A stretch of 64,000 nt of DNA from an uncultured Holophagales bacterium (GTDB taxonomy: Bacteria; Acidobacteriota; Thermoanaerobaculia; Multivoradales; UBA5704): positions 1,536,001 through 1,600,000 of the forward strand of contig CAWJGT010000003.1 in assembly GCA_963842525.1 (NCBI GenBank). Direction: 5' to 3'. Positions 17,701 to 53,301 of this stretch are shown here, piece after piece; positions within the stretch are counted from its first letter, which is position 1; the number at the start of each line of letters is the position of its first letter. The translations under genes and the position numbers were made by a program. A model generated the notes under the pieces. The model did no database searches and was not told the origin of the DNA. It worked only from the letters and a program-made list of their open reading frames with translations.

Positions 17701-20096
17701 GGCTCGGCGGCCAGGGTCCGCAGGCCGTCGCCGAAGCGCACTGTGCCGCGCAGTTGGCGGGCCCAGTAGCGCGGGTCGATCGCCTCCTCGGCGGTGATCC
17801 AGCCGCCGGTCAGGTTGGAGACGAAGGGGATCTCGGGCGGGCGCCGCCGGACGGCGGCCACGCGCGCCTCGAACGGGGCCAGGACCGGCTCCATCATCGG
17901 CGAATGGAAGGCGTGCGAGGTGTGAAGGGACCGGCAGGCGACCCCGCGGCCGGCGAGCTCCGCGGCCAGGGCCTCGACCGCCTCGCGCGGACCGGAGACG
18001 ACCGCGCGGCCGGGGCCATTGACCGCCGCCAGGGCCAGGCCGGGGCCAAGGAGGGGTGCGATCTCCTCCTCGGGCACCGGCACCGAGAGCATGGCGCCGG
18101 GGGGCATGGACTGCATCAGCCGACCGCGCTCCGCCACCAGGGCCAGGGCGTCCTCCAGGGAGAAGACGCCGGCCAGGCAGGCGGCCACGAACTCGCCGAC
18201 GCTGTGGCCGAGCAGGGCCCGCGGGCGTACACCCCATTCCATCCAGAGGCCGGCCAGGGAGTGCTCGACGACGAAGAGCGCCGGCTGGGCCAGGGCGGTC
18301 TGCTCCAGGCGGCGGGCAGCGTCCTCCTCCTGCCCCGGCCGCGGATAGAGCACCTCGCGCAGGTCCAGGCCCAGGAGGGGGCGCAGGATCTCGCAGCAGC
18401 GGTCCACCGCCCGGCGGAAAGAAGCCTCGGTTTCGTAGACCTCCCGGGCCATGCCGGGGTGCTGCGAGCCCTGACCGGGGAACAGGAAGACGGCCGGCCG
18501 CGCGTTTTTCTCCTGGCGCGCCGTGGCGAAGAGATCGGAATCCCCGGCCTCCAGGGCCGCGGAGGCCTCCTCGGGCGAGCGGCAGACGAGGGCTCCCCGG
18601 TGCCGCAGACGCCGGCGTCCCACTTGAAGCGTCCAGGCGGCATCAGCCAGGGGCAACTCTGGATGCCGGTGCAGGTGCTCGGCCAGGCGGGTCCGGGCTG
18701 CCGCCAGGGCGGTCGCCGTGTGGGCCGAGAGGACTAGGAGCTGCCAGGGCCGCGCCGGAGGGGGCGACGGCTCGCGGGCCGGCGGCTCCTCCACGATGAC
18801 ATGCGCGTTGGTGCCGCCGACGCCGAACGAGCTGACCCCCGCCCGCAGCGGTATGCCGCCGGCGTTCCACTCGCGCAGCCGGTCGTTGACGAAGAACGGG
18901 CTGCTCGCGAAATCGATCAGCGGGTTGGGCCGCTCGAAGTGGAGGCTCGGCGGGATCTGCCGGTGCCGGAGGGAGAGCACCGTCTTGATCAGGCCGGTCA
19001 CGCCGGCGGCCGAGCGCAGGTGACCGACGTTGGTCTTGGCCGACCCGAGGGCGCAGAAGCCGCTCTTGTCCGTGCCGGCGCGGAACGCCCGCGTCAGGGC
19101 CGCCACCTCGATAGGGTCCCCCATCGAGGTTCCCGTGCCGTGCGCCTCGACATAGGTGATCGTCTCGGGGCCAACCTCGGCCTGGAGGTGGGCAGTGCGG
19201 ACGACCTGGTATTGCCCTTCGCCTCCCGGCGCGCTGTAGCCCGCCTTCTGCGAGCCATCGTTGTTGACCGCCGAGCCCCGGATCACGGCATGGATCAGGT
19301 CGCCGTCGGCGAGAGCATCCGGCAGGCGCTTCAGCACCACCAGGCCGATGCCGCTGCCGAAGACCGTCCCCTGGGCACGCGCGTCGAAGGCCCGGCAGTG
19401 GCCGTCGGGAGAGTGGATGCCTCCCTCGGCGGCCCTATACCCCGATTTCGCCGGCAGCTTGAGCGAGACGCCGCCGGCCAGGGCCATGTCGCACTCGCCG
19501 GAGAGCAGGGCCTGGCAGGCGAGGTGGACGGCCACCAGGGAGGTCGAGCAGGCCGACTGGACCGTGAGGCTCGGGCCGCGCAGGCTCAGCTTGTAGGAGG
19601 TCCGGGTCGCCAGGTAGTCCTTGTCGCTGGACACCTCGAGCTGGAAGGCGCCGGCCGTCTCGATGACCTCGGGCTGGGAGAAGAGGTTGTGCAGATAGGT
19701 GTTCATCTCCACGCCGGCGTAGAGGCCCACCAGCCCCGGGTAGCGCTCGCTGTCGTAGCCGGCCCGCTCGAGGGCCTCCCAGGCGGTCTCCAGGAACAGG
19801 CGGTGCTGCGGGTCCAGCAGGCGCGCTTCGTGCGGCGGGATGTCGAACAGGGCGGCGTCGAAGAGCTCGACGCCTTCGAGCACCGACGCAGCCGGCACGT
19901 AGCCCGGCCGGGCGAGCTGGGCCGGGCTGACGCCCGCCTCCAGCAGCTCCTGCTCGGTGAAGAAGGAGATCGACTCGACCCCGTTCTTCAGGTTCTCCCA
20001 GAGCTGCTCGACGGAGGGGGCTCCCGGGAAGCGGCCCGCCAGGCCGATCACGGCCACCTCGGCGCCAGTGCGCTCGTCTGCGTCGCCTCGTTCCAT
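14763..20096 (-). CDS. Type I PKS module KS-AT-KR with DH inserted into the KR, then ACP
   Basis: ORF 14763..20111; ATG at 20096 with AGGAAGAG upstream is the likelier start. KS VQSACSTS/EAHGTGT/KTNVGH; AT GHSVG with HAFH; KR YLITGGLGGLG and GQVDYCAANSFLD; DH HRLLGTPTLP and HPALLD; ACP DNFFDLGGDS. Confidence 0.93.
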   Translation of the reverse strand: MERGDADERTGAEVAVIGLAGRFPGAPSVEQLWENLKNGVESISFFTEQELLEAGVSPAQLARPGYVPAASVLEGVELFDAALFDIPPHEARLLDPQHRLFLETAWEALERAGYDSERYPGLVGLYAGVEMNTYLHNLFSQPEVIETAGAFQLEVSSDKDYLATRTSYKLSLRGPSLTVQSACSTSLVAVHLACQALLSGECDMALAGGVSLKLPAKSGYRAAEGGIHSPDGHCRAFDARAQGTVFGSGIGLVVLKRLPDALADGDLIHAVIRGSAVNNDGSQKAGYSAPGGEGQYQVVRTAHLQAEVGPETITYVEAHGTGTSMGDPIEVAALTRAFRAGTDKSGFCALGSAKTNVGHLRSAAGVTGLIKTVLSLRHRQIPPSLHFERPNPLIDFASSPFFVNDRLREWNAGGIPLRAGVSSFGVGGTNAHVIVEEPPAREPSPPPARPWQLLVLSAHTATALAAARTRLAEHLHRHPELPLADAAWTLQVGRRRLRHRGALVCRSPEEASAALEAGDSDLFATARQEKNARPAVFLFPGQGSQHPGMAREVYETEASFRRAVDRCCEILRPLLGLDLREVLYPRPGQEEDAARRLEQTALAQPALFVVEHSLAGLWMEWGVRPRALLGHSVGEFVAACLAGVFSLEDALALVAERGRLMQSMPPGAMLSVPVPEEEIAPLLGPGLALAAVNGPGRAVVSGPREAVEALAAELAGRGVACRSLHTSHAFHSPMMEPVLAPFEARVAAVRRRPPEIPFVSNLTGGWITAEEAIDPRYWARQLRGTVRFGDGLRTLAAEPEAVLLEVGPGQALASFARQSPDRPASQAVVRSLPHPKEAEPDGRFLTGAVGRLWLAGVEIDWQGFHAGTARRRVELPSYPFERQRYWIDRRPESVPGAARPDVRKEISDWFYLPSWQRSVPPEPEAGPLRWLLLGDGGGLAEVMARRLREQGHTIAEKGGEADRIVHLGCLGETGPDGEEIFHGLLGLAQELGRLPGRAELRVVTCGLQAVGREVVLAPDQATVLGPVRVLPLEHPNLGCAAVDVEAPWDDASRERLAEILINEAFAPADAAVVAWRGDERWVERFDPVRLPAADPARLPLRERGVYLITGGLGGLGLTLARELARSFRARLVLTGRALRGPDHPAIQELEALGAEVLALAADVTDEAAMRDVVLRTRERFGPLQGAIHAAGVPGGGVIQLKTAEAAARVLAPKMRGARVLANVLAGEPLDLLVFCSSTYALTGGVGQVDYCAANSFLDAFARHLAAERGIRAVSLGWGAWREVGMAVDATARSAAPAPPEAPVHPFLDRRLGTENGGGAVYETHFSPSRHWVLAEHRLLGTPTLPGTTYLEMARAAFADATGVRQVEIRDVAFTGPLLIVDGDAREVRTTLEPSVAETGETRFRIASRTGAGAAWQEHAHGRLRPLDGAAPARLDILALRARCGVRDIEAQGNVSSVAAGVVSWGARWQSFQRASLGTSEALVTLELPAEHAGDLDGLALHPALLDVATAAGASLTGDGAMLPHSYDRVAVLEPLPGRIHAHVRTAGETLRFDVTLLDDDGRVLVDIDGFTLKRVAAGAAGPGAARPRTPAGNHLWIAPAEGVDAFRRALSRGRFAQVAISPTDLPAAINALRREAARRAEPPAEARRFSRPELETDYAAPGTSIESALADVWQTVLGLERVGIHDNFFDLGGDSVVGIQLAAQAAARGLGITPEQLFRHQTIAALARALEKPAVPEAADTAPPSTHKEAFSPLDFPEAGLSQESLDRLLAKARGMA

Positions 20097-20114
20097 CGTC
20101 TCTTCCTGCACTTC

Positions 20115-23100
20115 CTAACCCCTCGCCCGCTGTGCCTTCTGCAGGCGCTGCCGGCGGAAGTCCCGGCCCTCGCGGAGCTTTTCGGATCGATCGGGCTCCG
20201 GGCGGGACGCAGCCGGTCCTGCTTCCGGTTTCGCGATCCCCGAACCGATCAGATGCCGCGCAAGCAGGCCCACGCTCGGGTGGTTGAACATCTCGACCAG
20301 GGAGATCTCCCGGTCGAGCGCCTGGTACAGCGCGTTGTGGAAGCGGACCACGTGCACCGACGTGGCGCCGAGGTCGAAGAAGTTGTCGTCTACGCCCACC
20401 CGCGGCAGCCCGAGCACCTCGGTCACCACGCCGGCGAGGACCCGCTCCAGCTCCGTCTCCGGCGCCACGTAGGGCCGGGTGGCCGGCTTCGCTTCCGCCT
20501 GTAGCGCATCCGGAGGCGGCAGGGCCTTGCGGTCGACCTTGCCGTTGAGGCTCAAGGGGATCTCCTCCAGACGCACGAAGTGGGCGGGCACCATGTACTC
20601 GGGGAGCCGGCCGTGCAGGTGCTCCCGCAGGTCGGCGAGGACCTCGCGCTCCGGCCGCGGGGCCGGCGGCGGCGCGCCCTCCGGTCCGAGCAGGCGCACC
20701 AGCTCGCGGTCTTGGGCCGCTTCGGCCTGGAAGGCGGCGAGCCCGGTCTGGCCAGCGGCGAGCCGGCCGCCCAGGATCGCGTGTACCAGCTCGTGGCTCT
20801 CATCCAGGCCGAAGTGCCTCCGGACCTCGCCGAAGCGGACACCGCCCACCTGCGACAGGCCGATCCGGCGCTCCGGCGCCGACATCTCCAGGAGCTGGGT
20901 CATCAGACCCGCCTCCAGGAGCGCGAAGTCCCGGGCGCGCTCGCCGTAGAGCGGCGCGATCGCAGCCATCCGCGCAATCAGGAAGACGGCGAACGCCGCC
21001 TCCTCGAAGGTCGCCCGGTTGACCGGGTCGTAGAGCGAAGCGTCGAGCCCGGCCCCGGCGAGCCGTGCCAGCCGGTGCTCCCGCGGGTCGTAGTAGTAGA
21101 TCCCCTCGTCCAGTGCTTCCACCCGGCCCGGCTTGATCCAGAGATGGGCCTGGACCGGGTAGAGGTTCCCCGCTGAGCCGTAGCGGAGCTTGGGGAACGG
21201 CGACCCTTCGACGTCCACCTGAAGGAGGCAGGAGAGGAACCCGGCGAGGTCGTCCAACGGGACGGGCTCGCGCAGGAACTTGCGGAAGCTGCGCCGCCGC
21301 AGGTAGCGGGCCTCCAGCTCCTCCGGCGTCAGCTCCGGCCGTTTCAGAGAGACGGTTGCGAAGTCTCCGAGGTCGCGGCGCAGGCCGTGGTGCTGGAGCT
21401 TGAAGCGCAGCCGCTCCACCGGATCGACCGGAGCCGCCGGAGCAGGGGGCTGCTCGTCGCGCAGGACGACCCAGGCGACGAGCTGTTTGGTCCCCTGGCG
21501 CTCCCCCACGGCATCGACGACCGCCGCGGCCACGGCCGGGTGGCGGGACAGGGCAGCCTCGATCTCGCCGAGCTCGATGCGGTGCCCCTGGACCTTCACC
21601 TGGAAGTCGTCGCGGCCGAGGAACTCGATGTTGCCGTCCGGCAGCAGGCGCCCGAGGTCGCCGGTACGATAGAGCCGTTCGCCGGTCCGCGGATGGACGA
21701 TAAAAGCGGCGGCGGTCTTCTTCTCGTCGCGCCAGTACCCCCGGGCCAGGCCGGCGCCGCCGATATAGAGGTGCCCCAAGACCCAGACCGGCCGCGGCTC
21801 CAGCTCCTCGTCGAGCACATGGAACCGCTGGCTCGCCATGGCCTTGCCGTAGGGGATGCTCGCCCAGCCCGGCGCGACCTCGCCGATGGGATAGAGGATC
21901 GACCAGATCGACGCCTCGGTGGCGCCGCCCAGGCTGATCACACGGGCCCCTGGGAACGCCGCCCGTACGCGGTCCGGCAGGCGCAACGGGATCCAGTCGC
22001 CGGAGAGAAGGACCGCGCGCAGCGGGAAGCCCGGCACGTCCGGACGCCCCTCCCCGTACTCGACGAGCATCTCTATCAGGGCCGGCACGGTGTTCCAGAC
22101 CGTCACGCCGGTGCGCGCCGCGAGCTCGGCCCAGTGGGCAGGGTTGCGCTCCGTCCCGGGATCAGGTACGACCACGGCGCCGCCCGCCGCCAGCAGCCCG
22201 AAGAGGTCCCAGACCGAGAGGTCGAAGCTCAGCGAAGACAGGGCGAGGACCCGGTCGCCCGGGCCGGTCCCGAGCCGCTGGTTGACGTCCATCACGGTGT
22301 TGAGGGCGCCGCGGTGGTCGATCATCACTCCCTTGGGCTGGCCCGTGGAGCCGGAGGTGAAGATCACGTACGCCAGATCGCCGGGCCGCTGGATCGGCGG
22401 CAGCGGCTCGCCGCGCGCCGCAGAGAGCATCTCCGTGCACACGGCGATGGGCTCGACGCCGGGCGGCCCATCGAGATCGATTCCGCTCTGCGTCAGCGCG
22501 ATCGACACCTCGCCGCTCTCCAGGAGGTGGCGGATCCGCTCGCGTGGCAGGCGGGCGTCGACCGGCAGGTAGGCGGCGCCGGCGCGGAGGATGGCGAGGA
22601 CCGCCAGCGCCTGCTCCCAGCCCTTGTCCATGACTACCGCGACCAGGGTGTCGGGGCGGGCGCCGAGGTGCCGCAGGCGGCGCGCCAGGGCCAGGGAGGC
22701 ACGGTCGAGCTCGCCGTAGGTGACCGTGCGGCGCGAGGTGATCACCGCCGGCGCGTCCGGGCGCCGCCGGGCCTGCACCAGGAACGGCTCGTGGAGGAGA
22801 CGGGACGGGACCGGAGCGTCCGTGGCGTTGGCCTCGGCGATCAGCGCCCGGTGGGCCGCGGGCAGCAGGTCGCAGACCGGCTCGCGCCAGGCCTCCTCCC
22901 CCTCCGCGAGGCGCTGCACCAGCCGGCCGTACGCCGCGAACATGTCGTCGAGCAGACCGGGCGGGAAGAGCTCCTCGACCGCGTCCCAGCTCCAGGCCAG
23001 GACGCCGCCGGACTCGGCCACCTGGTGGTCGAGCCAGACCTGGGGCGTCTGGGTGATGCTGTAGACCGTCTCGCCGTCGAAGGGGCTCTCCGTCTCCGCC

Positions 23101-26100
23101 TCGTCGCCGGTCCCGGCCTGGTTGAGGGTGCTGGTAAAGACCACGGGCATCAGGGTGCCCGGGCCGCCCTGGACGCGGGCCAGCTCGCGCAGCACGCGGA
23201 CGCCGCTGACCAGCCAGTTCTCCAGGTCGTCCCAGAGCCGGCCCTGGAGGCGGCGCGCCCGCTCCTCGAACGGCTCGCCGGGCAGCGGCTCGGAGGCGAG
23301 GAGGGTCAGCGAGGTGAAGTCGCCGACGATGCGGTCCACCTCGGGGTGGAGCGGCGGCCGGTTGAACAGGGTCAGGTTGAGGGTCAGCCGCGGGCTCTGG
23401 CTCCACGCCGCCAGCACCTGGGCGTAGGCCGCGGCCAGCAGGCTCGACGGCGTGAGAGCCACGCGGGCCGCCCGGACCTTGAGGCGCGACCAGGCGTCCC
23501 GCTCGAGGCTTGCCCGCCGGCGCACGAAGCGCGGCGCGGCAAGCGACGACGGGCTCTGCGCCAGCGGCAGGGCGGGCGAGGGGGGGAGGCTCGCGAGCCG
23601 GCCGCGCCAGTAGTGGAACGCCCGCCGGTACGCCTCCGTCTCGTGGAGGGCCGCCTCGGCCAGAACGCAATCGCGGAAGGAGAGCGTGAGCGGCTCGAGC
23701 TCCGTCCCGGGATCGGCATAGAGGAGCGCCAGCTCGCGCCCCAGGAGGCGGAAGCTCCAGGCGTCGCCGATCAGGAGGTCGAGGCTGACGTGCAGCCGCG
23801 TGCGGCCGCCGGGGAGCCGCGAGGCCGCGATCTCGAAGAGCGGCCAGCGGTCGCTGGGGAGGACCTGATGCGACAGGCGGCCGCGCACAGCTTCCAGGGC
23901 CTCCTCCTCCGCGGCGTTCGCCGCCTGCCGCAGGTCCACCACGCCGATCCGGTAGGGGGGCACCTCGGGAAGGATGCGCTGCCGGCCGTCGGGCTGGACC
24001 ACGGCCCGCAGCATGCTGTGGCGGTCGATGAGGCGCCGCAGGGCCGACTCCAGCCGGGCCAGGTCGAGCCCGCGGAGGTCCACTTCGAAGTAGATGTGGG
24101 TCGCGACCGAGCCCAGCTCCAGGGCGCCGCTGCGGCCGATCCAATACGCTTCCTGGACGTCGGTCAGCGGGAACGGGAGGTGCATCGAGGCCGGGTCGGG
24201 CACGAGGCGCGGCAGGGCCACGTCCGCCGGCTCACCTTCCGGCCGCGCAGCCACGGCAGCGGCAAGCCCGGCCACCGTCGGGTTTTCGAACAGCACCCGC
24301 AGCGGCAGATCGGCGCCGAAGTCCTGCTGGATCCGGTACATCAGCCGGGTGGCCAGGATGGAGTGGCCGCCGAGCTCGAAGAAGTTGTCCTGCGCGCCCA
24401 CCCGCTCCACGCCCAGGATGTCGCCCCAGAGTGCTGTCATCGACTCCTCCACCGGTCCCCGCGGCGCCACCCAATCCGCGGCGGCGGTCTCCCGGCGCGA
24501 GGGCGTCACCGCGCGGACGGTCCTGGCGGCCAGGGGCGCGAGCAGCGGCAGCTCCGAGAGGCGCTGCCCGGGATCGGCGGCGGCGCCGGCGAGCAGGGCT
24601 GCGAGCTGCGCGGCAAGGCGCTCGGCCGTGGTGCGGTCGAACAGGTCGGCGTTGTGCTCCAGGGAACCGGCGAGGCCGTCCTCCACCTCGGCGAAGGAGA
24701 GAAGCAGCTCCAACTTGGCCGCGCCGGTGGCGACCGGCTGCAGCGACAGGGCGAGCCCGGGGAGCTGGAGTCGCTGCGCCGGGGCGTTCTGCAGGATGAC
24801 CATCACCTGGAAGAGCGGCGGCCGGGCCAGATCGCGCGGCGGCTGCAGCTCCTCCACCAACTTCTCGAAGGGGAGGTCCTGGAGGGCGTAGGCATCGAGA
24901 GCGGCCTCGCGTACCCGGCCGAGCAGGGTGCGGAACGCCGGGTCGCCTGCGAGGTCGCCGCGCAACGGCAGGGTGTTGAGGAAGAGGCCGATCAGGTCCT
25001 CCACCTCCGGACGGTTGCGGCCGGCCACGGGTGTGCCCACCACCAGGTCGTCCTGGCCGCTCACGCGGTGGAGGAGGACCTGGAAGGCGGCGAGCAGCGC
25101 CATGAAAAGGCTCGCCCCCTCGCCACGGGCCAGAGCCAGGAGGTCCGCCGCCGCCCCGCGGTCCAGGCGGAAGGGCACGCTGCCACCGCGGAAGCTCTGT
25201 ACCGGCGGGTACGGACGGTCGGTGGAGAGGTCGAGGGCAACGGGGGCTCCGGCGAGGCGCGCGCGCCAGCGGTCCGCGAGCCGCGCTACCGTCTCAGGGG
25301 TCAGCCAGCGCCGTTGCCAGGCAGCGAAGTCGGCGTACTGGACCGGGAGCTCCGGCAGGGACGCGCTCCCGCCCTCCAGAGCCGCGGCATAGAAGGCCGA
25401 GAGCTCGCGTACGAAGATGCCGACCGACCAGGCGTCGCAGACGATGTGGTGCGCCACCAGGAGAACACCGTGCTCCCGCGCGCCGAGCCGGAACAGGGTT
25501 GCAAGCAGGAGCGGCCCGGCCGCGAGGTTGAACGGCCGCGCGGCCCCGGAGGCAGCCTGCCAGTCCAATTCGGCGTCGCGCCGGCCGGCCGGCAGGGCCG
25601 CCAGATCGACCATGGGCAGAGGAACCGCGGCGGCCGGCGCGATCACCTGCCGCGGCTCGCCCGCGACCGCCGGGAAGGTGGTGCGCAGGGCCTCATGGCG
25701 GCGGACCACCCTGGCCAGGGCCGCCGCCAGGGCCGTTGCATCGAGGCCGCCCTCCAGACGGAGGAGGGCTGGCAGGTTGTACGAGCCGCTCCGCTCCAGC
25801 CGGTCGAGGAACCAGAGCCGCTGCTGGGCGAAGGAGAGGGGGATCTCTCCGTCGCGCCCGGTGGGTACGACCGGCGGGGCCTCGGGGGCACGGCCGACCC
25901 GCATCGCGGAGGCGAGGCGGCCGGCGAGCCCGCGCACCGTGGGCCGTTCGAAGATCCAGCGCACCGGCGGCGTGACACCCAGGGCGCGCCCGGCGCGGGA
26001 GGCGATCCGTGTCGCCAGCAGAGAGTGCCCGCCCAGGGCGAAGAAGTCGTCGTCGATCCCCACGCGCCCGGCGCCCAGCACCTCGGCAAAGAGGCTGGCC

Positions 26101-29100
26101 AGCAGCTCCTCCACCGGATCGCGGGGCGCTGCGAAGGCGGCGGCCGGGGCGGCGGCCTGCGGCGCCGGCAGGGCCTTGCGGTCCACCTTCCGGTTCGGGG
26201 TGAGGGGGAGGGCCGGCAGGACGACGAAGGCGGAGGGCGCCATGTAGTCGGGCAGCCTCTCGCGGAGCCAGGAGGAGAGCGCCGGTTTGAAATCCGACGG
26301 ATCGGTCGGATTAGTCGGATCGGTCGGATCGGGGACCACGTAGCCCACGAGCCGCAGGTCGCCACGGTCCTGGCGGGCCACCACCACAGCCTGGGCCACG
26401 GCGGGGTGCAGGCAGAGGGCCGCCTCGATCTCCCCCAGCTCGATGCGGTGGCCGCGGATCTTGACCTGCTGGTCGGCGCGGCCGAGAAAGACCAGCCGGC
26501 CGTCCGCCTGCGGCCTGGCGAGGTCGCCGGTGCGGTAGAGGCGGGCCCCGGGCGCCTCTGCGACCGGATCGGGCACGAACCGCTCGGCGGTCAGCTCCGG
26601 CCGGCCGAGGTAGCCGCGCGCCAGTCCCGCGCCGCCGAGGAAGACCTCGCCGGTCATCCCGAGAGGCACTGGCTGCATCCGGCGGTCGAGGACGTAGATC
26701 TGCGTCGCGGCCACCGGCCGGCCCAGCGGGACCGCCCCGTCGTGGTCACGGTCGACACGGAGCACGGCCGACCAGACCGTTGTCTCGGTCGGGCCGTAGA
26801 GGTTCCACAGCTCGCTGCCGCGCCGCCGCAGGCTCGCTGCCAGGTCGCCCAGGAGCGCTTCGCCGCCGGAGAGGATGCGCAGGAGGCCGGCCCCCTCCTC
26901 CCATCCCGCTTCGAGGAGCAGCCGCCAGGTGGACGGCGTGGCCTGGACCACGGTGGCGCCCGATCCGCGGACGCGCTCCAGCAGGCGGCGGCCGTCGCGG
27001 ACCACCTCGCCCGGGGCGATCTCCAGCCGCGCGCCGGCGAGGAGCGGGAGATAGAGCTCCAGCGCCGCGATGTTGAACGACAGCGAGGTAACGGCGAGGA
27101 GCGTGTCCGCAGCCGACAGCCCCGGCTCGCGGAGCATGGAGAGGAGGAAGTTGGCCAGGGCGCCGTGGGGGATCTGCACGCCTTTCGGCGTCCCCGTGGA
27201 GCCCGAGGTGTAGATCACATAGGCCAGGTTGTCCGGACCGGCGCCGCCATCCCCCGCCTCCACGCTGCTCTCCTCGATCCGATCGACGAGGAGCAGGCGG
27301 GCGCCGTGCTCCGGCAGGGAGCCGGCCAGCGCGCTGTGGGAGACCAGGGCACAGACCCCGCTGTGGCGCAGCATGAAGGCGAGCCGCTCGGCGGGATAGG
27401 ACGGATCGAGGGGGACGTAGGCGCCCCCCGCCTTCCACACCGCCAGGGCGGCGGCAAGCAGCTCAGGGGAGCGTTCCAGGGCGATGCCGACCCGCACCTC
27501 AGGACCGACGCCCACGGCGCGCAGCGCTCCGGCCAGCCGCCCCGCCCGCGCCTCCAGCTCCTGGTAGGTCCAGCGCCCGCCGTCGAAGACCACCGCCACG
27601 GCATCAGGCGTGAGCGCGGCCTGCGCGGCCACGAGCTGATGGACGCAGGCCGCGGGAGCCAGGTGTCCGGGAGCGCTCCAGCCGGTGACGAGCTGGCGTT
27701 GCTCGGCCTCGCCGAGGATCGGCAGCTCGGAGATCCGGCGCTCCGGCCCGGCCGCCGCCGCGGCCAGAAGCTGGACGAAGTGCCCGGCCCAGCGCGCGGC
27801 GGTGGCGGCGTCGATCAGGTCCGCTTTGTATTCGAGATAGCCGGCGATCCCGCCGTCCATCTCGAGGAGGGAGACTGTGAGGTCGAAACGCGCCACGCCG
27901 TGGAAAGAGTCGAGGGGGCGCAGCGTCAGGCGATCCGTGGACGCCATGGCCTCCGCCGGCGCGTTCTGCAGGATGAAGAGGGCCTGGAACAGCGGCGAGT
28001 GGCCGAGGCTGCGCTCCGGCCGCAGCTCCTCCACGAGCTTTTCGAAGGGCAGCTCCTGGTGGTCGAAGGCGCCCAGGGCCGCTCCGCGCACCCGTGCCAG
28101 AGCCTCGGCGAAGGCCGGATCGCCTCCGAGGTCCGTGCGCAGCACCAGGGTGTTGATGAACAGGCCGATCAGGCCCTCCACCTCGGCGCGGGTCCGGCCG
28201 GCGATGGGAGAGCCCACGGCCAGATCCTCCTGGCCGGTATAACGGTAGAGGAGGACGTCGAAGGCGGTCAGAAGAGTCATGAAGAGGGTGGCGCCCCGCC
28301 CCAGGCCGAGGGCGTTCAGCGCCGCCGTCAAGTCCGCCGGGATGGAGATCGCCTGCCGCCCTCCCCGGAAGGTCTCGACAGCCGGCCGTGGCCGGTCCGT
28401 GGGCAGCTCCAGCAGCGGGGGCTCTGGGGTCAGCAGCTCCTTCCACCAGGCGAGGAGCTCCACCATCACAGGGCCGGAAAGCCCTTGCCGCTGCCAGTGT
28501 GCGAAGTCGGCGTACTGGATCGGCAGCTCCGCCAGGGGTGAAGGAGCGCCGGCGGTGAAGGCCTGGTACAAGGTCCGCAGCTCGTGGACGAGGATCCCCA
28601 GCGACCAGCCGTCGGAGACGATGTGATGCTGGTTGACCAAGAACAGATGGTCGCGCCCGCCGAGAAGCACGACGGCGGCGCGGAGCAACGGTCCGCGAAC
28701 CAGGTCGAAGGGCCGCCGCGGCTCCTCCGAGGCCAGACGTAGCGCCTCGGCCTCCCGGCGATCCGCTGCGAGGGCGGTCAGGTCCACCAGTGGAAGAGGG
28801 ACCGGGGAGGGTGGCGAGATCCTCGGCGCCGGAGTCCCCTCGGCGGCGGGGAAGATAGTGCGCAGCACCGTGTGGCGCCGCACCACCTCGCTCAGGGCGC
28901 TCTCCAGGGCCGCCGGATCGAGGTCGCCGTCCAGGCGGATCGCTGCGGGGATGTTGTAGGCGGCGCTGCCGGGGTCGAGCTGATCGAGGAACCAGAGCCT
29001 CTCCTGGGCGAAGGAAAGGGGCAGAACGGCCTCGCCCTGGGGCAGCGGCGCAAGCGGCGGCGCCTTGGGCCCCACGGCAGTCCGTGCCGCTGACTCGGCC

Positions 29101-32100
29101 CGCTCCGCGAGCTCCGCCGGCGTGGGTGCGTTGAAGAGCGTCTCGATCCGCAGCTCGACTCCGGTCTCCTCCCGGAGACGGGTGAGGAGCCGGGTGCCGA
29201 GCAGCGAGTGGCCGCCCAGCGCGAAGAAGCTGTCGTGGATCCCGGCGGCCTCGACCCCGAGGAGCTGTTCGAACATCCGGGCGATCCGCGCCTCGGTCTC
29301 GGTGCGGGGAGGCGCGTACGTCCTCCGCAGGCCCGTGCGCGGAAGGGCTGTGGCGGCGAGAGCCTGAGGCCTGTCGTGCGCCGGCTCGGCCGGGGGCAGC
29401 GAGCGTCCGCTTCGCTGCTCCCGCGCCGGCTCGATCCAGTAGCGGCGGCGCTGGAAGGCATAGGCCGGCAGAGGCAGCCGCCGCCGGCGTTCTCCGGCGT
29501 GCAGGGCCTCCCAACCCACCTCGGCCCCAGCCAGCCAGAGCCTGCCGAGCGCGTCCAGCAGGAAAGCTTCGTCGGGCTGCCGGTCGTAGGCATGGGGCAG
29601 CGAGGGGACGGCGGTCCTCGGGGCGTCGCCCTGCGCCGCGGGGTGCTGGAGCGCCAGGGACGACAACCCGTTGCCCGGCCCTACTTCGAGGAGCACCCGC
29701 GAGGGGTCCGCGAGCAGCGTCGCCAGGGCGTCCGAGAAGCGGACGGCGCCGCAGAGGTGGCGAGCCCAGTAGCCGGGGTCCGTCGCCTCCTCGGGGGTCA
29801 TCCACCGGCCTGTCACGTTGGACAGACAGGGGATGGCCGGCGGCGCCAGCGATATCTGCCGCACTCGCTCCGTCAGCTCGCCGGCGATCGCCTCCATCTG
29901 CCGCGAGTGGAAGGCGTGGGTGGTCGGAAGCTCCCGGGAGGGGATCCCCTCGGCGGTGAGGTTCGCGGCCAGAGCTGCGGCCTCCTCCGGCGGGCCCGAG
30001 ACGACCGAAAGCTGCGGCCCGTTGACCGCGGCGAGATCAAGCCCGGCCGATAGCCGCGGGCGCAGCTCCTCCTCCGGCATCGGCACGGCGAGCATGGAGC
30101 CGGCGGGGAGCGCCTCGATGAGGCGTGCCCGCTCGGCCACGAGCCAGAGTGCGTCCTCCAGAGAGAAGACCCCCGCCAGGCAGGCCGCCAGGTACTCGCC
30201 CAGGCTGTAGCCGAGGAGCGCAGAGGGCGCGATGCCCCACGACATCCAGAGGCGGGCCAGGGCATAGCTCACGGCGAAGACCGCCGGCTGGGCGAAAAGA
30301 GTGCGGTCGAGCCGCCGGGCCGCCTCACCTTCCCGGCGACCGCGGCCCACCAGGCGGCGCAGGTCGAGCCCTCCTTCCTCTTCGCGGATCCCGGCGAAGA
30401 TCACCTCCCGCAGATCGCAGCCGAGATGCCCGCGCAGCACCTCGGCGCAGCGGTCGAGCTCCTCCCGGAAAACGGGCTCGCTCGCGTAGAGGCCACGCCC
30501 CATCCCCAGGTAGTGGTCGCCGACGCCGGGAAACAGGAAGGCCACTGGCCGGCTCCCCGGCTCCTGGAACGCCGTCGACAGCCGGTGGGGGTCGCGGCCG
30601 GCCAGAGCGAGGCGGGCCTCCTTGACATCACGGCAGACGAGGGTGCGGCGCCAAGGGAAGGGGCGGCGGCCTGCCTGGAGGGTCCAGGCCACGTCCGCCA
30701 ACCCGGCTTCGGAGTGGCGGTCGAGCCAGCCGGCCAAGCGGTCCGTGGCCGCTTCGAGGGCCTCCTCGCTGCGGGCCGAGAGCACCAGGAGCTGCCAGGG
30801 GCGCGCCGGGGAGCCCGGCTCGCTCTCCGGCGCCTCTTCGAGCACGAGGTGGACGTTGGTGCCTCCGATGCCGAACGAGCTCACGCCGGCCCGCCGCGGA
30901 CCCCGGTCTGCCGGCCAGTCCGCCAGGCGGGCGTTGACATAGAACGGGCTCGCCGCAAAGTCGATCTTCGGGTTCGGCGTCTCGAAGTGGAGACTCGGGG
31001 GGATCTGCCGGTGCTCCAGGGAGAGCACGGTCTTGATCAGGCTGGTGACGCCGGCGGCGGCTCCCAGATGCCCGACGCTCGTCTTGGCCGAGCCGATGGG
31101 GCACCGGCCCGTCTTCTCCATCGGGCCGAACGCCCGGGTCAGAGCCGCCACCTCGATGGGGTCGCCCAGCTCGGTCCCGCAGCCGTGGCACTCGACATAG
31201 CCGATGGATTCCGGCGCGATCCCGGCGAGATCCTGGGCCTCTGCGATCACCTCCGCCTGCCCCTCGATGCTGGACGCCGTGTAACCGACCCTGCACGAGC
31301 CGTCGTTGTTCATGGCCGAGCCCCGGATGACGGCGCGGATCTGGTCGCCGTCGGCCAGGGCGTCCTCCAGGCGCCTGAGGACGACGAGGCCGACGCCGCC
31401 GCCGTAGATCGAGCCGTCGGCCTTCGCGTCGAAGGCCCGGCAACGCCCGGTGGACGAGTCGAGGCCCCCTTCCTGGTAGAGATAGCCCGTCACCTGGGGC
31501 ACCTTGATCGAGACGCCGCCAGCCAGCGCCATGTCGCAGTCGCCGACGAAGAGAGCCCGGCACGCGAGGTGGACCGCCACCAGAGAGGTGGAGCAGGCCG
31601 TCTGGACGTTGACGCTCGGCCCGCGCAAGTCGAGCTTGTAGGAGGCCTGCGTGGCCAGGAAGTCGCGGTCCGTGGCGATGGCCATGTGGTAGCCGCCGAG
31701 CTCCTGGAGCAGCTCCGGACGGGACAGGAGATGGTTCAGAAAATAGGTCGACACCGTCACGCCAGCGTGGAGGCCGATCCGGCCGGCGAAGCGGCGGCTG
31801 TCGTAGCCGGCGTTCTCCAGCGCCTCCCAGGCGCACTCCAGGAACACCCGGAGCTGGGGGTCCATGATCTCGGCCTGGCGCGGCGCATAGTCGAAGAAGC
31901 CGGCGTCGAAGAGATCGGCATCCTCCAGCACGCCCCGGGCCTTGACGTACTTGGGGTGGCGAACCAGCTCCGGATCGATACCGGCGGCGAGGAGCTCCTC
32001 GTCGGTGAAGGACGACACGGCGTCCACGCCGTCGCGCAGGTTGGCCCAGAAGCGGTCGAGATCGCGCGCCCTGGGGAAACGCCCGGCCATGCCGATGACA

Positions 32101-35100
32101 GCGATCCTGCCGCTCGCGGCGGCGCGGCGGCGGGAAGACGGCCGGACCGGGGCCGGCGCCGCCTGCTGCCGTCCCAGGTGCTCGGCCTGGGCGCGCACGT
32201 TCGGCCAAGCGAAGAGGTCGAGGAGGGGCAGCTCGCGGCCCAGCACCTCCTGCAGGCGGGCGTGCAGCCGCACCAGCAGCAGCGAATGGCCGCCCAGGTC
32301 GAAGAAGTTGTCCTCGACCCCGACCCGCTCGACGCCCAGGACCTCGCACCAGACCGCGGCAATGCGTTGCTCCAGCTCGCTCTGCGGCGCGGTCCGTACC
32401 TCCGCGGCCGGCGGGGCCTCCGGCGCGGGCAGCGCGCGGCGGTCCACCTTGCCGTTGGGGGTGAGGGGAAGCCGGGGGAGGAGCACGAGCGTGGCCGGCA
32501 CCATGTGCGCCGGGAGCCGCTCGCGCAGCGCCCGGCGCAGCTCGGGGATGCGGACCGCGCCCTCCAGCTCCGCCACCACATAGGCGACCAGGCGCTTCTC
32601 CCCCTGCTCGTCGCGGACGATCACCACCGCCTCGCGCACGCCGGGCTGGGCGGCGAGCGCCGCTTCGATCTCCCCGGGCTCGATGCGGAAGCCGCGGATC
32701 TTGACCTGCAGGTCTGCCCGGCCGGCGAACGCCACCTCGCCGTCCGGCAGGTGCCGCCCGAGGTCGCCCGTGCGATAGATCCGGTCGCGCGGATCTTCGG
32801 TGAAGGGGCTGGGACGGAACTTCTCGGCGGTGAGCGCCTCGTCGTCGAGGTACCCCTGAGCGAGATGCGGGCTGCGCACCGCGATCTCGCCGATCTCGCC
32901 GAGGCCCGCCAGGACGCCGGCCCGGTTGAGGACCAGGAGCTGGACGTCCCGCATCCCCCGTCCCAGGGGGAGCACCTGCTTGTGCCTCTCCTCCGGCCCG
33001 TCGCCGTCCGGCTCCGCCACGTGGTAGGCCACGGCCCGCTGCGTCTCGGTCGACCCATAGAGGTTGACGCAGGTCACGTTCGGCGCCAGAGACCGGATGC
33101 GGGCCACATCCCGCCGGGTCAGGGCGTCGCCCACCAGGAGCACGCGGCGCAGGGCCGGCACCCCGGTGCGGCCGCCTCCCGCCGGCCGCTCGGTGAGGAG
33201 CTGGCCCATGGCCGGCGTGAGGTGGGCCACGGTCACCCTCTCCCGCGCCATCCAGGCCGCCAGGCGCCCCGCTACCGCGAGGTCCTCCGGATCGGGGACC
33301 ACGAGGGCCGCCCCCAGGTACAGAGGCGTGAAGAGATCGCGCTGCAACGGATCGTGCGCCAGGCCCGAGAGCAGGCTGAAGCGATCGTCCGCCGCCAGCT
33401 CGAAGCGGCGGCACTGCCAGGGAAGGAAATGGGTCAGCGGCCCGTGCCGGCCGACGATCCCTTTGGGCGTCCCCGTGGAGCCCGAGGTGAAGCCGAGGAC
33501 CGCCGGGTCGTCCGGTCCCACTGCCACGGCCGGGGCTGCGGCCTGGAAGCCGGCGAGGCGATCGAGGCAGGCGGCGGCCCCGCCGCGGGGGAGGTCGATC
33601 CGCGGGCAGCCCGCCGCGGCCAGCCAGGCCTCCACCGCGTCGGGGAGGGGGCCGGCGGCCTCCAGGCGCACCAGGGCGCGGGGGGCGGCGAGGCGGAGGG
33701 TCTCCACCAGGCGCGCCGCGGGGTAGGCCGGGTCGAGCACCGTGAAAGCGGCGCCGGCCCGCAGGGCGCCGAGCACGGCCAGGGCGACAGGCGCGCTGCG
33801 GTGGGCGACGACCGCCACGCGGTCGCCTTTCCGGACCCCTTCGGCCGCCAACCCGGCGGCCAGCCGGCGGCTCGCCTCCTCGAGCTCGCCGTAGCTCCAG
33901 GCCCCGTCGCGGTCGGTCACGGCCAGGCGGCCGGGGGCCGTGCGCGCCTGCTCCACGAACAGGTCGTGGATGGCCCCGATCCAGCCCGTGTCCAGGGGCT
34001 CGGCCGGATCGGGGAGCACCGTGCGGGCCCGGGCGGTCACCAGGGAAAGACGGCCGATCGGCTCCTTCGGCCGCTCCAGCGCCTGCTCCAGGAACAGCGC
34101 GAGCTGGTCGAGCAGGTCCTCCATGCGCGCCGAGTCGAAGAGGTCGGCGTTGTAGATCAGGTTGACGTCGATCCCCTCCTCCGGCTCGGAGACGTAGAAG
34201 GTCATGTCGAACTTCGACGGCGGCTCCGGGATGTCGAGCGGCTGCAGAGCGAGGCCCGGCAGGCGCAGCGCGATCGCCGGGTAGTTGAGCAGGTTGAACA
34301 GCACCTGGAAGAGCGGCGTGCGGGAGAGGTCTCGCTCCACCTGGAGGCGCTGGAGCAGGGCCTCGAACGGCACGTCCTGGTGGGAGAACGCCCCCAGGGT
34401 GGTCGCGCGCACCCGGGCCACCAGCTCCGCGAAGCCGGGCTCCCCCGCCAGGTCGGTGCGCAGCACCAGCGTGTTGAGGAAGAAGCCGATCAAGCTCTCG
34501 GCCTCCACGCTCCGCCGGCCGGCGATGGGAGCGCCCACCAGGAGGTCGGTCTGGCCGCTCCAGCGGTGGAGGAGGGCCTTGGCGGCGGCCAGGAGGGTCA
34601 TGAAGAGGGTGGCCCCACGGGCGCGGCCGAAAGCGCGCAGCCGCTCCGCCGTGCCGGCGGGCAGCCGCCGCCGCGCGTGGCCGCCGCGGAAGGCCTGGAC
34701 GGCGGGGCGCGGCCGGTCGATGGGCAGGTCCAGGGGGGCGACCTCGCCGCCCAGGCGTTCCACCCAGTAGGCCAGCTCGCGGTCGCGCGTCGCCTCGAGC
34801 TGGTGGCGCTGCCAGACCGCGAAGTCGGGGTACTGGACCGGTAACTCCGGCAGGCGCGGGGGGCGGCCCAGGACGGCCGCCTCGTAGAGATCGGCGATCT
34901 CGCGCACGAAGACAGCGATCGACCAGCCGTCGGCCACGATGTGGTGGAAGACCAGGAGGAGGCGGTGGCGGTCCGGCCCAAGGCGCAGGAGGGTGGTACG
35001 GAAGAGCGGCCCGCGACTCAGATCGAAGGGCCGGTTCGCTTGCCCGGCGGCGTGCCGGGCCGCCTCCTCAGCGAGCGCCGCGGGGAGGAGCCCCGACAGA

Positions 35101-38100
35101 TCGATCACCGGCAGGGAGGTCTCCAGGCCGGGCAGGATCCGCTGGCGCGGTATCCCGTCCACGGCCTGGAAGACGGTACGGAGCGACTCGTGCCGGCGGA
35201 CCACCTCCCGGAGGGCGCCGGCCAGGGCGCCTACATCGAAGATCGCCGGTGAGCTCCACCGGGCTGGGTATATTGAAAGTGCCCGTGCCCGGCTCCAGAC
35301 GGTCGAGGAACCAGAGGCGCTCCTGGGAGAAGGAGAGGGGGAAGACCTCCTCGCCCGGCCGGCGCGGCAGTCGCGGGATGGTGGCTTCGGCGTCCGACAC
35401 CGCCGCTGCGCTCGAGGTCGGCCGCCAGCGCCTCGATGGTGGGCGCTTCGAACACCCGGCGCACGGGCAGGCTCACTCCCAGAGCCGCGCGCACCCTGGC
35501 CAGCATGCGCGTGGCGAGCAGCGAGTGGCCACCGAGCTCGAAGAAGTCGTCGCGGGCGCCCACCCGCTCGCGGCCGAGCAGCTCCTCCCAAAGTCCGGCG
35601 AGCAGCTTTTCGAGCGGCGTGCGCGGCGCCACCCAGTCGGCCCCGGCGGTCCGGTCCGGGGCCGGCAGCGCCTTGCGGTCCACCTTGCCGTTGGAGGTGA
35701 GTGGAAGGGCGGCAAGGGTCACAAAAACGGCGGGGACCATGTAGTCCGGGAGGCGGTCGCGCAGGGACTGGCGCAGGGTTTCGGCGGCGGCGTCGCCGGC
35801 CACATAGGCCACCAGGCTGCCTTCCCGGACCACGACCACGGCCTCGCGGACCCCCTCCAGGGTGGAGAGGGCGGCCTCGATCTCCTCCAGCTCGATGCGG
35901 TAGCCGCGGATCTTGACCTGGTGGTCGAAACGCCCCAGGAACTCGATGGCCCCGTCCGGGTGGAAGCGGACCAGGTCGCCTGTGCGATAGAGACGCCCGC
36001 CCGGCTCGCCGAAGGGATCGGGGAGGAACCGCGCCGCGGTCAGATCGGGCCGGCCGAGATAGCCACGAGAGAGGGCCGGACCGCCCACCAGCAGCTCGCC
36101 GGCCACCCCGGCCGGCGCGGGCTGCAGGCGGCGGTCGAGCACATAGAGGCGGTTCTCGGCCGAGGGGTGGCCGATGGGGATGGAGACGAGCCCGCGCGGG
36201 CGCCAGTCCGCCGCCCGTCCGACCTCGTAGAGGGTGCAGTTGACCGCCGCCTCGGTCGGCCCGTAGCCGTTGAACAGGCGGCATTCCGGTCCGGTGACCG
36301 CGAAGGCCTCCGCGACGAGCCCCTCTCCCAGGGCCTCGCCTCCGAGATGGAGCACCTGAAGCGGGAGGCGCTCTCCCGCCGCCGCTGCGACGGCACGGAA
36401 GAAGGAGGGGGTGGTGTGGAGGGTGTTGATGCCGTGGCTCCGGACCTCGCGCAGGTAGCCCTCGATGTCGCTGCGCTCGGCCTCGCCGCGCAGGACGAGC
36501 GTGCCGCCGAACAGCAGCGTGGTGAGGATCTCGAAGACCCCGAAGTCGAAGGCATAGGACAGGCTCTGGAGGACCCGCGTGTGCTCGCCAAAGTCGAAGA
36601 CCTCGCGGCTCCAGAGGAGCAGCGGCACCAGGTTCTCGTGGGTGATGGGCACCCCTTTGGGAACCCCGGTCGAGCCGGAGGTAAAGATCACATAGGCGGT
36701 CCCGTCCCCCGTCCCGGCTGTCGCCGGGGAGAGAGGCTCCAGCGCCCGATCGAGGTCGTCCGGGCAGACCACGTGCGCCACGGCCGGGCACCTGTCGAGG
36801 CTCGTCCGGTCGGTGACGAGGACGGTGAGACCGCAGTCGGCGATCATCCGCTCGAGGCGCTCGGCCGGGAGGCCGGGATCGAGCGGCACGAAGCCACGTC
36901 CGGCCTTGAGGATTCCCAGCATCCCCACCAGCAGCGGCAGGTCCGGTGCGGCCATCAGGCCGATCAGGCCGCGGCCTTCGTAGCTCAGGAGCAGGCGTGC
37001 CAGCCGTCCCGCCTGCTCGTCGAGCTCCCGATAGGTAAGGGTCTTCCCCTGCCAGATCGCGGCGATCTTGCCGGGGGTCCGTGCCGCCTGCCGCGCGAAC
37101 AGCTCGTGGATCAGGGTGGGAATCGGGGTCTTCCACCCCGCCGAGCTCCACTCTTCAAGGATCGTCCGGCGCTCCGCCTCGCCGAGCAGGGGGAGCTCGA
37201 AGACGCTCGCCCCGGAAGCCTCGGTGGCCGCCGCGAGGAGGTGCTCGAAGCAGCCGGCCCAGCGTTGGATCGTCCCCTCTTCGAACAGGTCGGCGCTGCC
37301 GATCAGGTCGCCGGCAAAGCCGCCCCCCTCCTCGGCCAGAGCCAGGGAGAGGTCGAACTTGGCCGCCCAGCTCTCCTGCGGGAGCAGCTCCACGGTGAGC
37401 CCCGGCAGACGCAGCGGCTCCACCGGCGTGTTCTGCAGGGCGAAGGAGGCCTGGAACAGCGGTGTGTACGCCAGGTTGCGCCCGGGCTGGACCTCCTCGA
37501 CGAGCTTCTCGAAGGGCAGCTCCTGGTGGTCGTAGGCCTCCAGGGTGTGGCGGCGGGTGCGGGCGAGGAAGCCGGCGAACGAGGGCTCGTCCGCCAGGTT
37601 GGCGCGCAGCACGAGAGTGTTGACGAAAAATCCAATCAGGCCCTCGACCTCGGCGCGCTGGCGTCCGGCCACAGGGGTGCCGACGGTGAGGTCGGTCTGG
37701 CCGGAGAGGCGGGAGAGCAGGGCCTCGAAGGTGGCGAGCAGAACCATGAACGGGGTGGCGCCGGTGCTCAGAGCGAGACGGCGGACCCTCTCGGCCAGCT
37801 CGGGAGAAAGGCGGAGCCGGCGGCTCGTGCCGCGCTCGCTCGCCACGGCCGGGCGGGCGCGGTCGGTGGGCAGCGCCAGCTCCGGCGGCGCGCCGTGCAG
37901 GCGCTCGCGCCAGAAGCGAAGCTCGCCTTCGAGGGCCTCGCCGCTCAGGCGGCGGCGCTGCCAGGCCGCGAAGTCCGCGTACTGGAGCGGGAAGCTCCGG
38001 CAGGGGGGAGGGCCGGCCGGCGGCGAAGGCCTCGTAGAGGGCCGCGGTCTCGCGCACGAGGATGGCGATGGACCAGCCGTCCGCCACGATGTGGTGGAGG

Positions 38101-41822: not shown

Positions 41823-53301
<11,479 letters not shown>

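Follow-up and report, generated by a model that had tools for sequence, protein, structure and literature searches.

A Lys2-like adenylation domain from a large bacterial clade, set before a non-reducing polyketide synthase module in an assembly line of an uncultured Holophagales bacterium

The DNA analysed here (the window, always meant at its full length of 64,000 nucleotides) comes from an uncultured Holophagales bacterium and spans positions 1,536,001 to 1,600,000 of the forward strand of contig CAWJGT010000003.1 in assembly GCA_963842525.1. Its minus strand encodes an adenylation (A) domain that resembles the A domain of Lys2, the fungal alpha-aminoadipate reductase, and that is followed by a peptidyl carrier (T) and by a polyketide synthase (PKS) module made of ketosynthase (KS), acyltransferase (AT) and acyl carrier (ACP) domains. 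On balance, and with modest confidence, we regard the Lys2-like domain as selecting the substrate for the sixth elongation module in a very large minus-strand lipopeptide-polyketide line. The domain is neither fungal nor rare, being one of hundreds in a large bacterial clade of A domains from elongation modules of nonribosomal peptide synthetases (NRPSs). A preliminary description of the window had called it a fungal Lys2-type A domain; the type is upheld by profile scores, by eight shared pocket positions out of ten and by phylogenetic trees, but the word fungal has to be given up in view of the bacterial clade.

The likeness to Lys2 is far above chance. The best profile match of the domain is TIGR03443, the NCBIfam model of Lys2, with 603.8 bits over profile positions 196-751, while the same domain scores 383.6 bits with the generic A-domain model and 344-382 bits with the best named NRPS models. 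The equivalog cut-off of TIGR03443 (1030.1 bits) is reached neither by this domain nor by any of the 128 matches in the genome. The A-T-R architecture of Lys2 with its terminal thioester reductase is absent, the carrier being followed by KS-AT-ACP and then by a condensation (C) domain, and the protein is therefore not a Lys2 enzyme but only a relative of the A domain of Lys2. On equal stretches of 517 residues ending at motif A5, TIGR03443 gives 393.9 bits here, 718.2 bits for a fungal Lys2 fragment and only 105.7 and 94.3 bits for two ordinary C-A stretches taken from elsewhere in the gene. In BLASTP against this fragment the window stretch reaches 291 bits (181 of 525 residues identical) and an ordinary domain 87.4 bits; the alignment reaches upstream into the last part of the C domain and pairs it with the N-terminal part of Lys2. 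Within the A3-A5 core, 84 of 147 residues (57%) are identical to the fungal fragment, whereas the 86 ordinary A domains of the genome average 30% and do not exceed 38%. The bacterial clade is marked off by 17 positions, of which the fragment covers nine and shares eight, the ninth being Leu versus Ile. The preliminary description had quoted five strings from the translation, all of which are letter-perfect (Table 1), and the Lys2 motifs that it had cited were found in the fungal fragment.

The fragment that served as the Lys2 control is encoded on a contig of 1690 bases (L024), which came from a pattern scan of genome contigs. It scores 718.2 bits with TIGR03443 over 481 profile positions, and its protein is 100% identical to four unnamed proteins of 1334-1469 residues and 73% identical to the reductase of Malassezia pachydermatis. 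The contig is filed under a Corynebacterium bin, encodes this Malassezia-type Lys2 fragment and has a G+C content of 52.6%; it is probably chimeric and mis-binned, with ends that resemble a human-type repeat and a sequencing adapter. Other searches were less specific: a PDB sequence search gave no Lys2-like structure, its best single stretch being the second A domain of LgrA (244.3 bits), and the ESM Atlas returned generic AMP-binding clusters only. A VinN-type beta-amino-acid ligase was considered and rejected, as it reached only 129 bits in the PDB search and belongs to a different family. The best 150 proteins of a representative-protein search were giant multi-A proteins ranked by summed score, and this set was used only as an additional source of A domains.

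To read the ten Stachelhaus columns of the substrate pocket, 173 A domains of the source genome were aligned with MAFFT, and since the other domains gave codes of the usual types the choice of columns appears sound. The resulting code, DPRHLVLRAK, reproduces the DPRHLVLRA of the preliminary description and adds the final Lys. All 24 fungal Lys2 proteins examined (named full-length basidiomycete proteins, with the fungal fragment as query) carry DPRHFVMRAK. The two codes agree at eight of ten positions, including Asp235 and the charged Arg239, His278 and Arg330, and differ by Leu for Phe299 and Leu for Met322. Asp235, Pro236, Arg239 and His278 all lie in the pocket, and the motifs AHDPLQRD and AHLTPA were located.

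Domains of this type are widely distributed. The source genome has six, three with DPRHLVLRAK, one with DPRHVAVRAK and two with DPRHFVYRAK. The exact pattern HDP.QRD.FTP occurs in at least 119 stretches of genome contigs, 80 of which were fetched as loci, and the counts of related loci given below rest on these 80. They come mostly from Acidobacteriota, the others being from Chloroflexota, Gemmatimonadota, Binatia, Myxococcota and Pseudomonadota; their codes fit the pattern DPR[H/N][F/L]V[L/Y/F/S]R[A/S]K, with DPRHLVLRAK itself in 15 loci. Neither Zmn16 A1 nor McyE was among the stretches that the scan listed. Among 1219 A-domain matches in the fetched proteins and the genome set, 141 are of the DPRH type, with DPRHLVLRAK as the commonest code (42 of the 141).

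Trees place these domains together with Lys2. In a tree of the 173 genome domains, four DPRH domains form a clade (support 1.0, stem 0.59) whose sister is a domain with the code DARHFSLMVK. The sister domain is located on contig C9 (frame-0 translation, A3 motif at residue 515588), in a protein ordered AT-T-C-A-T-C-A-T. The DARH code goes with beta-linked methyl-aspartate in microcystin synthetase, and by analogy side-chain activation may predate the DPRH clade. A wider FastTree analysis combined 94 of the 173 genome domains (one per distinct code and all D[P/A]R codes), the 24 Lys2 proteins and 77 of the 80 loci (all but L024, L041 and L052); after removal of rows with at least one quarter gaps, 191 rows and 537 columns remained. 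In this tree 104 of the 191 rows, namely 80 bacterial DPR domains and the 24 Lys2 proteins, form a clade with nothing foreign in it (support 0.97), and Lys2 is monophyletic (1.0) and stands beside one Ardenticatenales locus (0.966). A mixture-model tree (LG+C20+F+G4, short search) was built from 53 rows, 8 of Lys2, 30 of bacterial DPR domains and 15 others, picked partly by hand and partly randomly; it recovers the joint clade of Lys2 and bacterial DPR domains with an SH-aLRT of 99 and the DARH sister with 100, and a fast IQ-TREE run gave the same grouping. That the domain clades with Lys2-like domains, a point on which the preliminary description had staked its proposal, is thus found in the FastTree and mixture-model trees alike.

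The base of the clade is not resolved in the mixture-model tree, in which the pairing of Lys2 with the Ardenticatenales locus reaches only 92. With LG+G4 as the model and the very long L025 row removed, an approximately unbiased (AU) test does not reject the monophyly of bacterial DPR domains apart from Lys2 (p 0.667), the tree constrained in this way being 17.6 log-likelihood units better than the free tree. With Lys2 sampled from basidiomycetes only, the trees do not decide whether Lys2 is nested in the bacterial DPR clade or is sister to it. The bearing on the origin of Lys2 that the preliminary description attributed to this domain belongs instead to the clade as a whole, and it is partly in print already: one study reports bacterial A domains as sister to the fungal reductases (PMC2823734), and another proposes that Lys2-type reductases and module 1 of ACV synthetase descend from an elongation module (PMC7884236). 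The Condensation family PF00668 appears in the precomputed Pfam lists of nearly all fungal Lys2 proteins of our set (P0273-P0392), which agrees with the published view of the N-terminal ADA part as a remnant of a C domain.

The hand-over to a PKS, also claimed in the preliminary description, is real: the domain is followed by its carrier and by a non-reducing KS-AT-ACP module. The six domains of C-A-T and KS-AT-ACP lie in one frame with their catalytic motifs, save for the first approximately 37 residues of the C domain, which a three-frame reading finds in another frame. The motifs HHIVADG, GGHSL, TACSTS, ECHGCGT, VGHLG and GYSLG were read in this pair of modules, and neither a stop nor a lost catalytic motif was seen in the module itself. 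No ketoreductase (KR), dehydratase (DH) or enoylreductase (ER) was found between KS, AT and ACP, either in the Pfam tiles or on reading the AT-ACP sequence. Judged from its residues, the PKS module looks competent, with the Cys-His-His of the KS and the active-site Ser of the AT present and a KR lacking. The HAFH motif of its AT is a mark of malonyl-specific enzymes. The AT active site reads GYSLG here (at 30212, minus strand), and those of the other two ATs in the window read GHSVG and GHSLG.

The same arrangement recurs elsewhere. A paralogue on contig C19, in an intact frame of 8098 residues, has the same C-A(DPRHLVLRAK)-T order and the same spacing of AT and carrier, and it is among the nearest relatives of the window domain in the mixture-model tree. 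In 48 of the 80 loci the sequence continued for at least 150 residues beyond the A domain, and 41 of these 48 could be classified: the domain after A-T is a C domain in 35 and a KS in six. The six KS domains are 59-75% identical to that of the window, and three of the six loci are among the nearest relatives of the window domain. In this sample no cultured strain is the source of any of the six; Sulfidibacter corallicola has DPR-type domains (L037, L057), both outside the six. A set of 137 DPRH domains from database proteins was also examined: the downstream sequence is too short to judge in 100, and in the remaining 37 a C or E domain comes next in 33, TE-like motifs in two and neither in two, and a KS in none. 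The hand-over to a PKS is a conserved speciality of one Thermoanaerobaculia sub-lineage and not a property of the clade.

What this module makes can be proposed from its relatives. Lys2 activates the delta-carboxyl of aminoadipate. By extension, the A domain would adenylate an amino dicarboxylic acid at the distal carboxyl and load the carrier through that carboxyl, and the growing lipopeptide would be transferred by the upstream C domain to the free alpha-amino group. Next, the KS would take the chain and the AT would supply malonate; because the module is without a KR, the beta-keto thioester would stay as it is, and the next C domain would hand the beta-ketoacyl chain to a Gly-type residue. 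The predicted product segment is peptidyl-NH-CH(COOH)-(CH2)n-CO-CH2-CO-NH-, in which the alpha-carboxylate would stay free in the middle of the chain. As the unit stands in mid-line with C-A-T after it, we rejected a tetramic-acid or Dieckmann ending. In the account given by the preliminary description, the kinship with Lys2 and the hand-over to a PKS hold on the strength of profile, pocket, tree and domains, and its substrate and regiochemistry are kept here as predictions from relatives, as are the carboxyl activated and the product.

The A domain that follows the PKS module (25900-27800, minus strand) has the code NILQLGLVWK, in which Asn replaces the usual Asp235; we take it to be a Gly-type code. 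Three more codes that begin with Asn are found elsewhere in the genome.

Going by the pocket, the clade and the characterised relatives, it is somewhat more probable than otherwise that the domain attaches an amino diacid through its distal (side-chain) carboxyl, whichever diacid that is. The order of preference would be 2-aminoadipate, then glutamate, then aspartate, aminoadipate being put first because Arg330 and the clade are shared with Lys2. Judged in this way, aminoadipate is the leading single candidate but still falls short of an even chance, a substrate outside these three comes close behind it, and glutamate and, last, aspartate appear unlikely. A characterised bacterial relative speaks for the distal carboxyl. 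The A1 domain of Zmn16 has the code DPRHLALLAK, which was predicted for '2-aminoadipic acid' (PMC3547906, Table 2), a label repeated in a later survey (PMC12283262), and the first residue of prezeamine is 'gamma-aspartate', an acidic residue linked through its side chain, as established by tandem mass spectrometry and 2-D nuclear magnetic resonance (PMC5811116). The frequency of DPRHLVLRAK among the DPRH codes, the recurrence of the A-T-KS link and the apparently competent PKS module also favour the proposed chemistry.

Several observations weigh against the distal attachment of aminoadipate. The pocket matches that of Lys2 (aminoadipate) and that of Zmn16 A1 (aspartate) equally, at eight of ten positions each, and so does not fix the chain length. 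The second pocket type, DPRHFVYRAK, found twice in the genome, implies that the clade may serve more than one substrate. No supply of aminoadipate is evident in the genome (96% complete) among the families looked for: LysW was not found, the best match to lysine 6-transaminase (LAT) reaches 129.9 bits against a cut-off of 520.8, matches to the saccharopine dehydrogenase domain are weak, and the HMGL-like family has one gene only. In ordinary A domains Asp235 and Lys517 bind the alpha-amino and the alpha-carboxyl group of the substrate; both are retained here, and the sequence therefore leaves room for the ordinary orientation. A further code of the same family, DPRHVSLLAK, is listed as coming from 'Asn-activating domains' in the survey cited above (PMC12283262).

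The last two points favour a different reading, in which the alpha-carboxyl of glutamate, aminoadipate, asparagine or glutamine is activated and then extended by the PKS, with the side-chain group held at the pocket floor by Arg239, His278 and Arg330. The product would be an alpha-amino-beta-keto unit whose side chain is free and which, in the case of asparagine, could close to a pyrrolidone, and the layout of C-A-T followed by a non-reducing KS-AT-ACP is that of the Asn-derived pyrrolidone of the microsclerodermins. We consider this orientation unlikely, since the relatives of known chemistry, Lys2 and Zmn16 A1, use the distal carboxyl, the pocket is that of Lys2 at eight positions of ten, and the genome already has the codes DLTKVGEVGK and DLTKVGHVGK for alpha-linked residues (presumably the ordinary Asn and Asp-type codes). 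It is also conceivable that the likeness to Lys2 reflects descent only and that the ligand is a hydroxylated, methylated or D-configured derivative or bears another anionic group. The two pocket subtypes within one genome, the differences from Lys2 at positions 299 and 322 and the failure to find aminoadipate supply genes in the genome searches all suit such a ligand; the four polar pocket residues common to both enzymes (Asp235, Arg239, His278 and Arg330) argue for ligand ends of the same kind, and no tailoring genes were seen beside the cluster, either in the window or at its far end, so that we find this reading very improbable.

Distal attachment of an amino diacid remains the reading we prefer, and it has to be reconciled with the state of the cluster. 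GC3 frame plots and three-frame readings locate changes of frame inside domains near 45950, 43200, 42600, 41900, 37970, 35340, 35235 and 11000, and further ones downstream of the window (L011 12600-19950). Some of these breaks lie just upstream of the Lys2-like domain and were not seen in the preliminary description. The break in the C domain of the module is a single extra base at approximately 35235, in the context GATCTTCGATG, which is not a homopolymer run. With this frameshift and several more in the cluster, the line may not be made in this strain or assembly, which is a further point against the proposed product. No public sequencing run with the source strain was found, the best share of words being 0.10, and the contigs of relatives speak for the relatives and not for the source strain. 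Contigs that are about 91% alike, from two runs, are without exactly the extra base at 35235, so that the lineage keeps the frame; contigs of relatives from as many as three runs also show small indel differences at 37991/37992, near 43200 and at 45973. The breaks in this genome are either assembly errors or recent decay.

Taken further, these breaks might mean that the cluster is decaying or mis-assembled and that no functional assembly line is expressed, even though the domain itself is intact. Such a state would fit the repeated frame changes in the window and downstream of it, the contrast with other NRPS frames of the genome, which stay open for up to 10975 residues, and the position of the extra base outside any homopolymer run. 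On the other hand, the relatives without the extra base, and with indels at other breaks, indicate a frame kept by the lineage, the sequence from 35240 to 20115 is open for about 5040 codons, and the module has lost neither frame to a stop nor a catalytic motif. We therefore judge a defunct line to be a rather improbable explanation.

The Lys2-like domain lies inside a long open frame of the minus strand (20115-37151), whose true coding part begins near 35240. The source genome has 9.95 Mb in 34 contigs, the window being part of contig C3; the G+C content of the window is 69-75%, and the named closest relatives of its proteins come from Thermoanaerobaculia and other metagenome bins of Acidobacteriota. 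The order of domains was established by Pfam scans of overlapping tiles of 450 residues and by motif scans. From about 53300 downwards the line begins with a fatty-acyl-AMP-ligase-like domain and a T domain, followed by five C-A-T modules. The C-A-T module with the Lys2-like domain comes next, and after it KS-AT-ACP, C-A-T, a C-T module without an A domain and Cy-A-Ox-T. The rest of the line in the window consists of KS-AT-KR-DH-ACP, C-A-T, C-A-T, KS-AT-ACP, C and then C-A-T-C crossing the window start, beyond which the line extends for a further 32 kb or so and stops ahead of an MFS transporter gene. The genes that flank the cluster upstream are housekeeping-like.

Table 1. Coordinates of the Lys2-like domain, its quoted strings and the neighbouring domains in the window
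Feature	Position	Strand	Basis or content
18-residue quoted motif	33444-33497	-	exact match
24-residue quoted motif	33309-33380	-	exact match
14-residue quoted motif	33195-33236	-	exact match
VGDALTRRD	33108-33134	-	exact match
13-residue quoted motif	33030-33068	-	exact match
Condensation domain of the same module	34023..35343	-	Pfam Condensation, 322.6 bits on 33951-35300; tblastn with the C domains of relatives
Lys2-like adenylation domain, code DPRHLVLRAK	~32382..33956	-	Pfam AMP-binding and AMP-binding_C; TIGR03443
Peptidyl carrier (T) domain	32175..32369	-	Pfam PP-binding; GGHSL at 32294
Ketosynthase	30981..32108	-	Pfam ketoacyl-synt and Ketoacyl-synt_C; Cys (TACSTS), His (ECHGCGT) and His (VGHLGAAAG) present
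Acyltransferase	29664..30539	-	Pfam Acyl_transf_1; active-site GYSLG, HAFH motif
Acyl carrier domain	29100..29288	-	Pfam PP-binding; directly after the AT linker
Next Condensation domain	27687..29030	-	Pfam, 346.8 bits; opens the NRPS module with A code NILQLGLVWK
Uninterrupted gene part	20115..35240	-	C-A-T, KS-AT-ACP, C-A-T, C-T, Cy-A-Ox-T

Several other features of the line deserve mention. The C-T module at 24252-25850 (minus strand), between the C-A-T and Cy-A-Ox-T modules, has no A domain of its own, and its carrier must therefore receive its substrate in trans or from an adjacent A domain. In the KS-AT-KR-DH-ACP module (14763-20111, minus strand) the dehydratase (15357-16187) comes after and not before the KR (16251-16787). 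A second A-T-KS-AT-ACP-C stretch without a KR (5400-10184, minus strand) belongs to the same line and its A domain has the ordinary code DASTIAAVCK, so that non-reducing PKS insertions are not tied to the Lys2-like domain. Between 2960 and 5350 (minus strand) a C domain (3936-5350) closes one gene, and another C-like domain (from 3914) opens the gene after it. The genome as a whole has 280 A3-type motifs, 183 of them in full stop-free A domains, an unusually large NRPS load for 9.95 Mb.

A domains of the DPRH or Lys2 type and acidic residues linked through their side chains are known already, and the module of the window resembles each of the known systems only in part. Besides the common clade, the likeness to Lys2 comprises eight of ten pocket positions, 57% of the A3-A5 core and eight of the nine clade-specific positions covered, and the N-terminal C-like ADA part of Lys2 aligns with the end of the bacterial C domain. 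Lys2, however, is a free-standing A-T-R reductase of primary metabolism, whereas the window domain belongs to an elongation module whose C domain is complete, and KS-AT-ACP, not a reductase, comes after it. McyE and NdaA of microcystin and nodularin synthesis have a DPRH pocket, a gamma-linked D-glutamate and a hybrid PKS-NRPS context; there, unlike in the window module, the PKS part precedes the A domain and a C domain follows it. The McyE code DPRHSGVVGK had no match in the literature searched. Module 1 of ACV synthetase has a pocket code that starts with Glu, not Asp. It activates the distal carboxyl of aminoadipate, has a truncated C-like N-terminal domain and differs from the window domain in being an initiation module. 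Its common origin with Lys2, from an elongation module, has been proposed (PMC7884236); it is set beside the window domain here by description only. Zmn16 A1 of zeamine and prezeamine synthesis in Serratia plymuthica is, according to the reports cited above, likewise part of a bacterial hybrid NRPS-PKS with a side-chain-linked residue in the product, its code agreeing with that of the window domain at eight of ten positions; it differs in belonging to what is described as a loading module, whose residue is followed by further amino acids and not by a KS. Compared by code alone, its pocket has Ala301 and Leu330 where the window domain has Val and Arg.

Literature searches for DPRH together with aminoadipate returned unrelated work only, searches for the exact codes gave nothing beyond the literature cited here, and the fabclavine literature gives no pocket code for FclI A1. 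In the literature searched we found no description of a mid-line, non-reducing PKS extension of a DPRH-loaded residue, nor of a keto-amino-diacid unit with a free mid-chain alpha-carboxylate. As a broader and more tentative proposal, which we hold to be possible but doubtful, widespread bacterial elongation modules, commonest in Acidobacteriota and nearly identical to Lys2 in their pocket, would install delta-linked 2-aminoadipate or a close amino diacid. One sub-lineage, that of the window, would extend this residue by a non-reducing PKS module, and Lys2, whose C-like N-terminus is truncated, would either descend from such a C-A-T module by loss of parts or be its sister.

Should the proposed chemistry fail, the domain would simply add to the stock of uncharacterised A domains, within a cluster that is likewise uncharacterised and may be broken. 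If it is true, the many DPRH A domains found in Acidobacteriota and in other soil phyla would have to be read as installing side-chain-linked acidic residues, and the predicted backbone would change for every product that contains a residue installed in this way. The conserved A(DPRH)-T-KS-AT-ACP cassette would offer a compact route to a free mid-chain carboxylate together with a beta-keto group and may be useful for engineering. Fungal Lys2 would also gain a concrete bacterial sister group with a shared pocket, and its origin from an elongation module would become testable with proper sampling.

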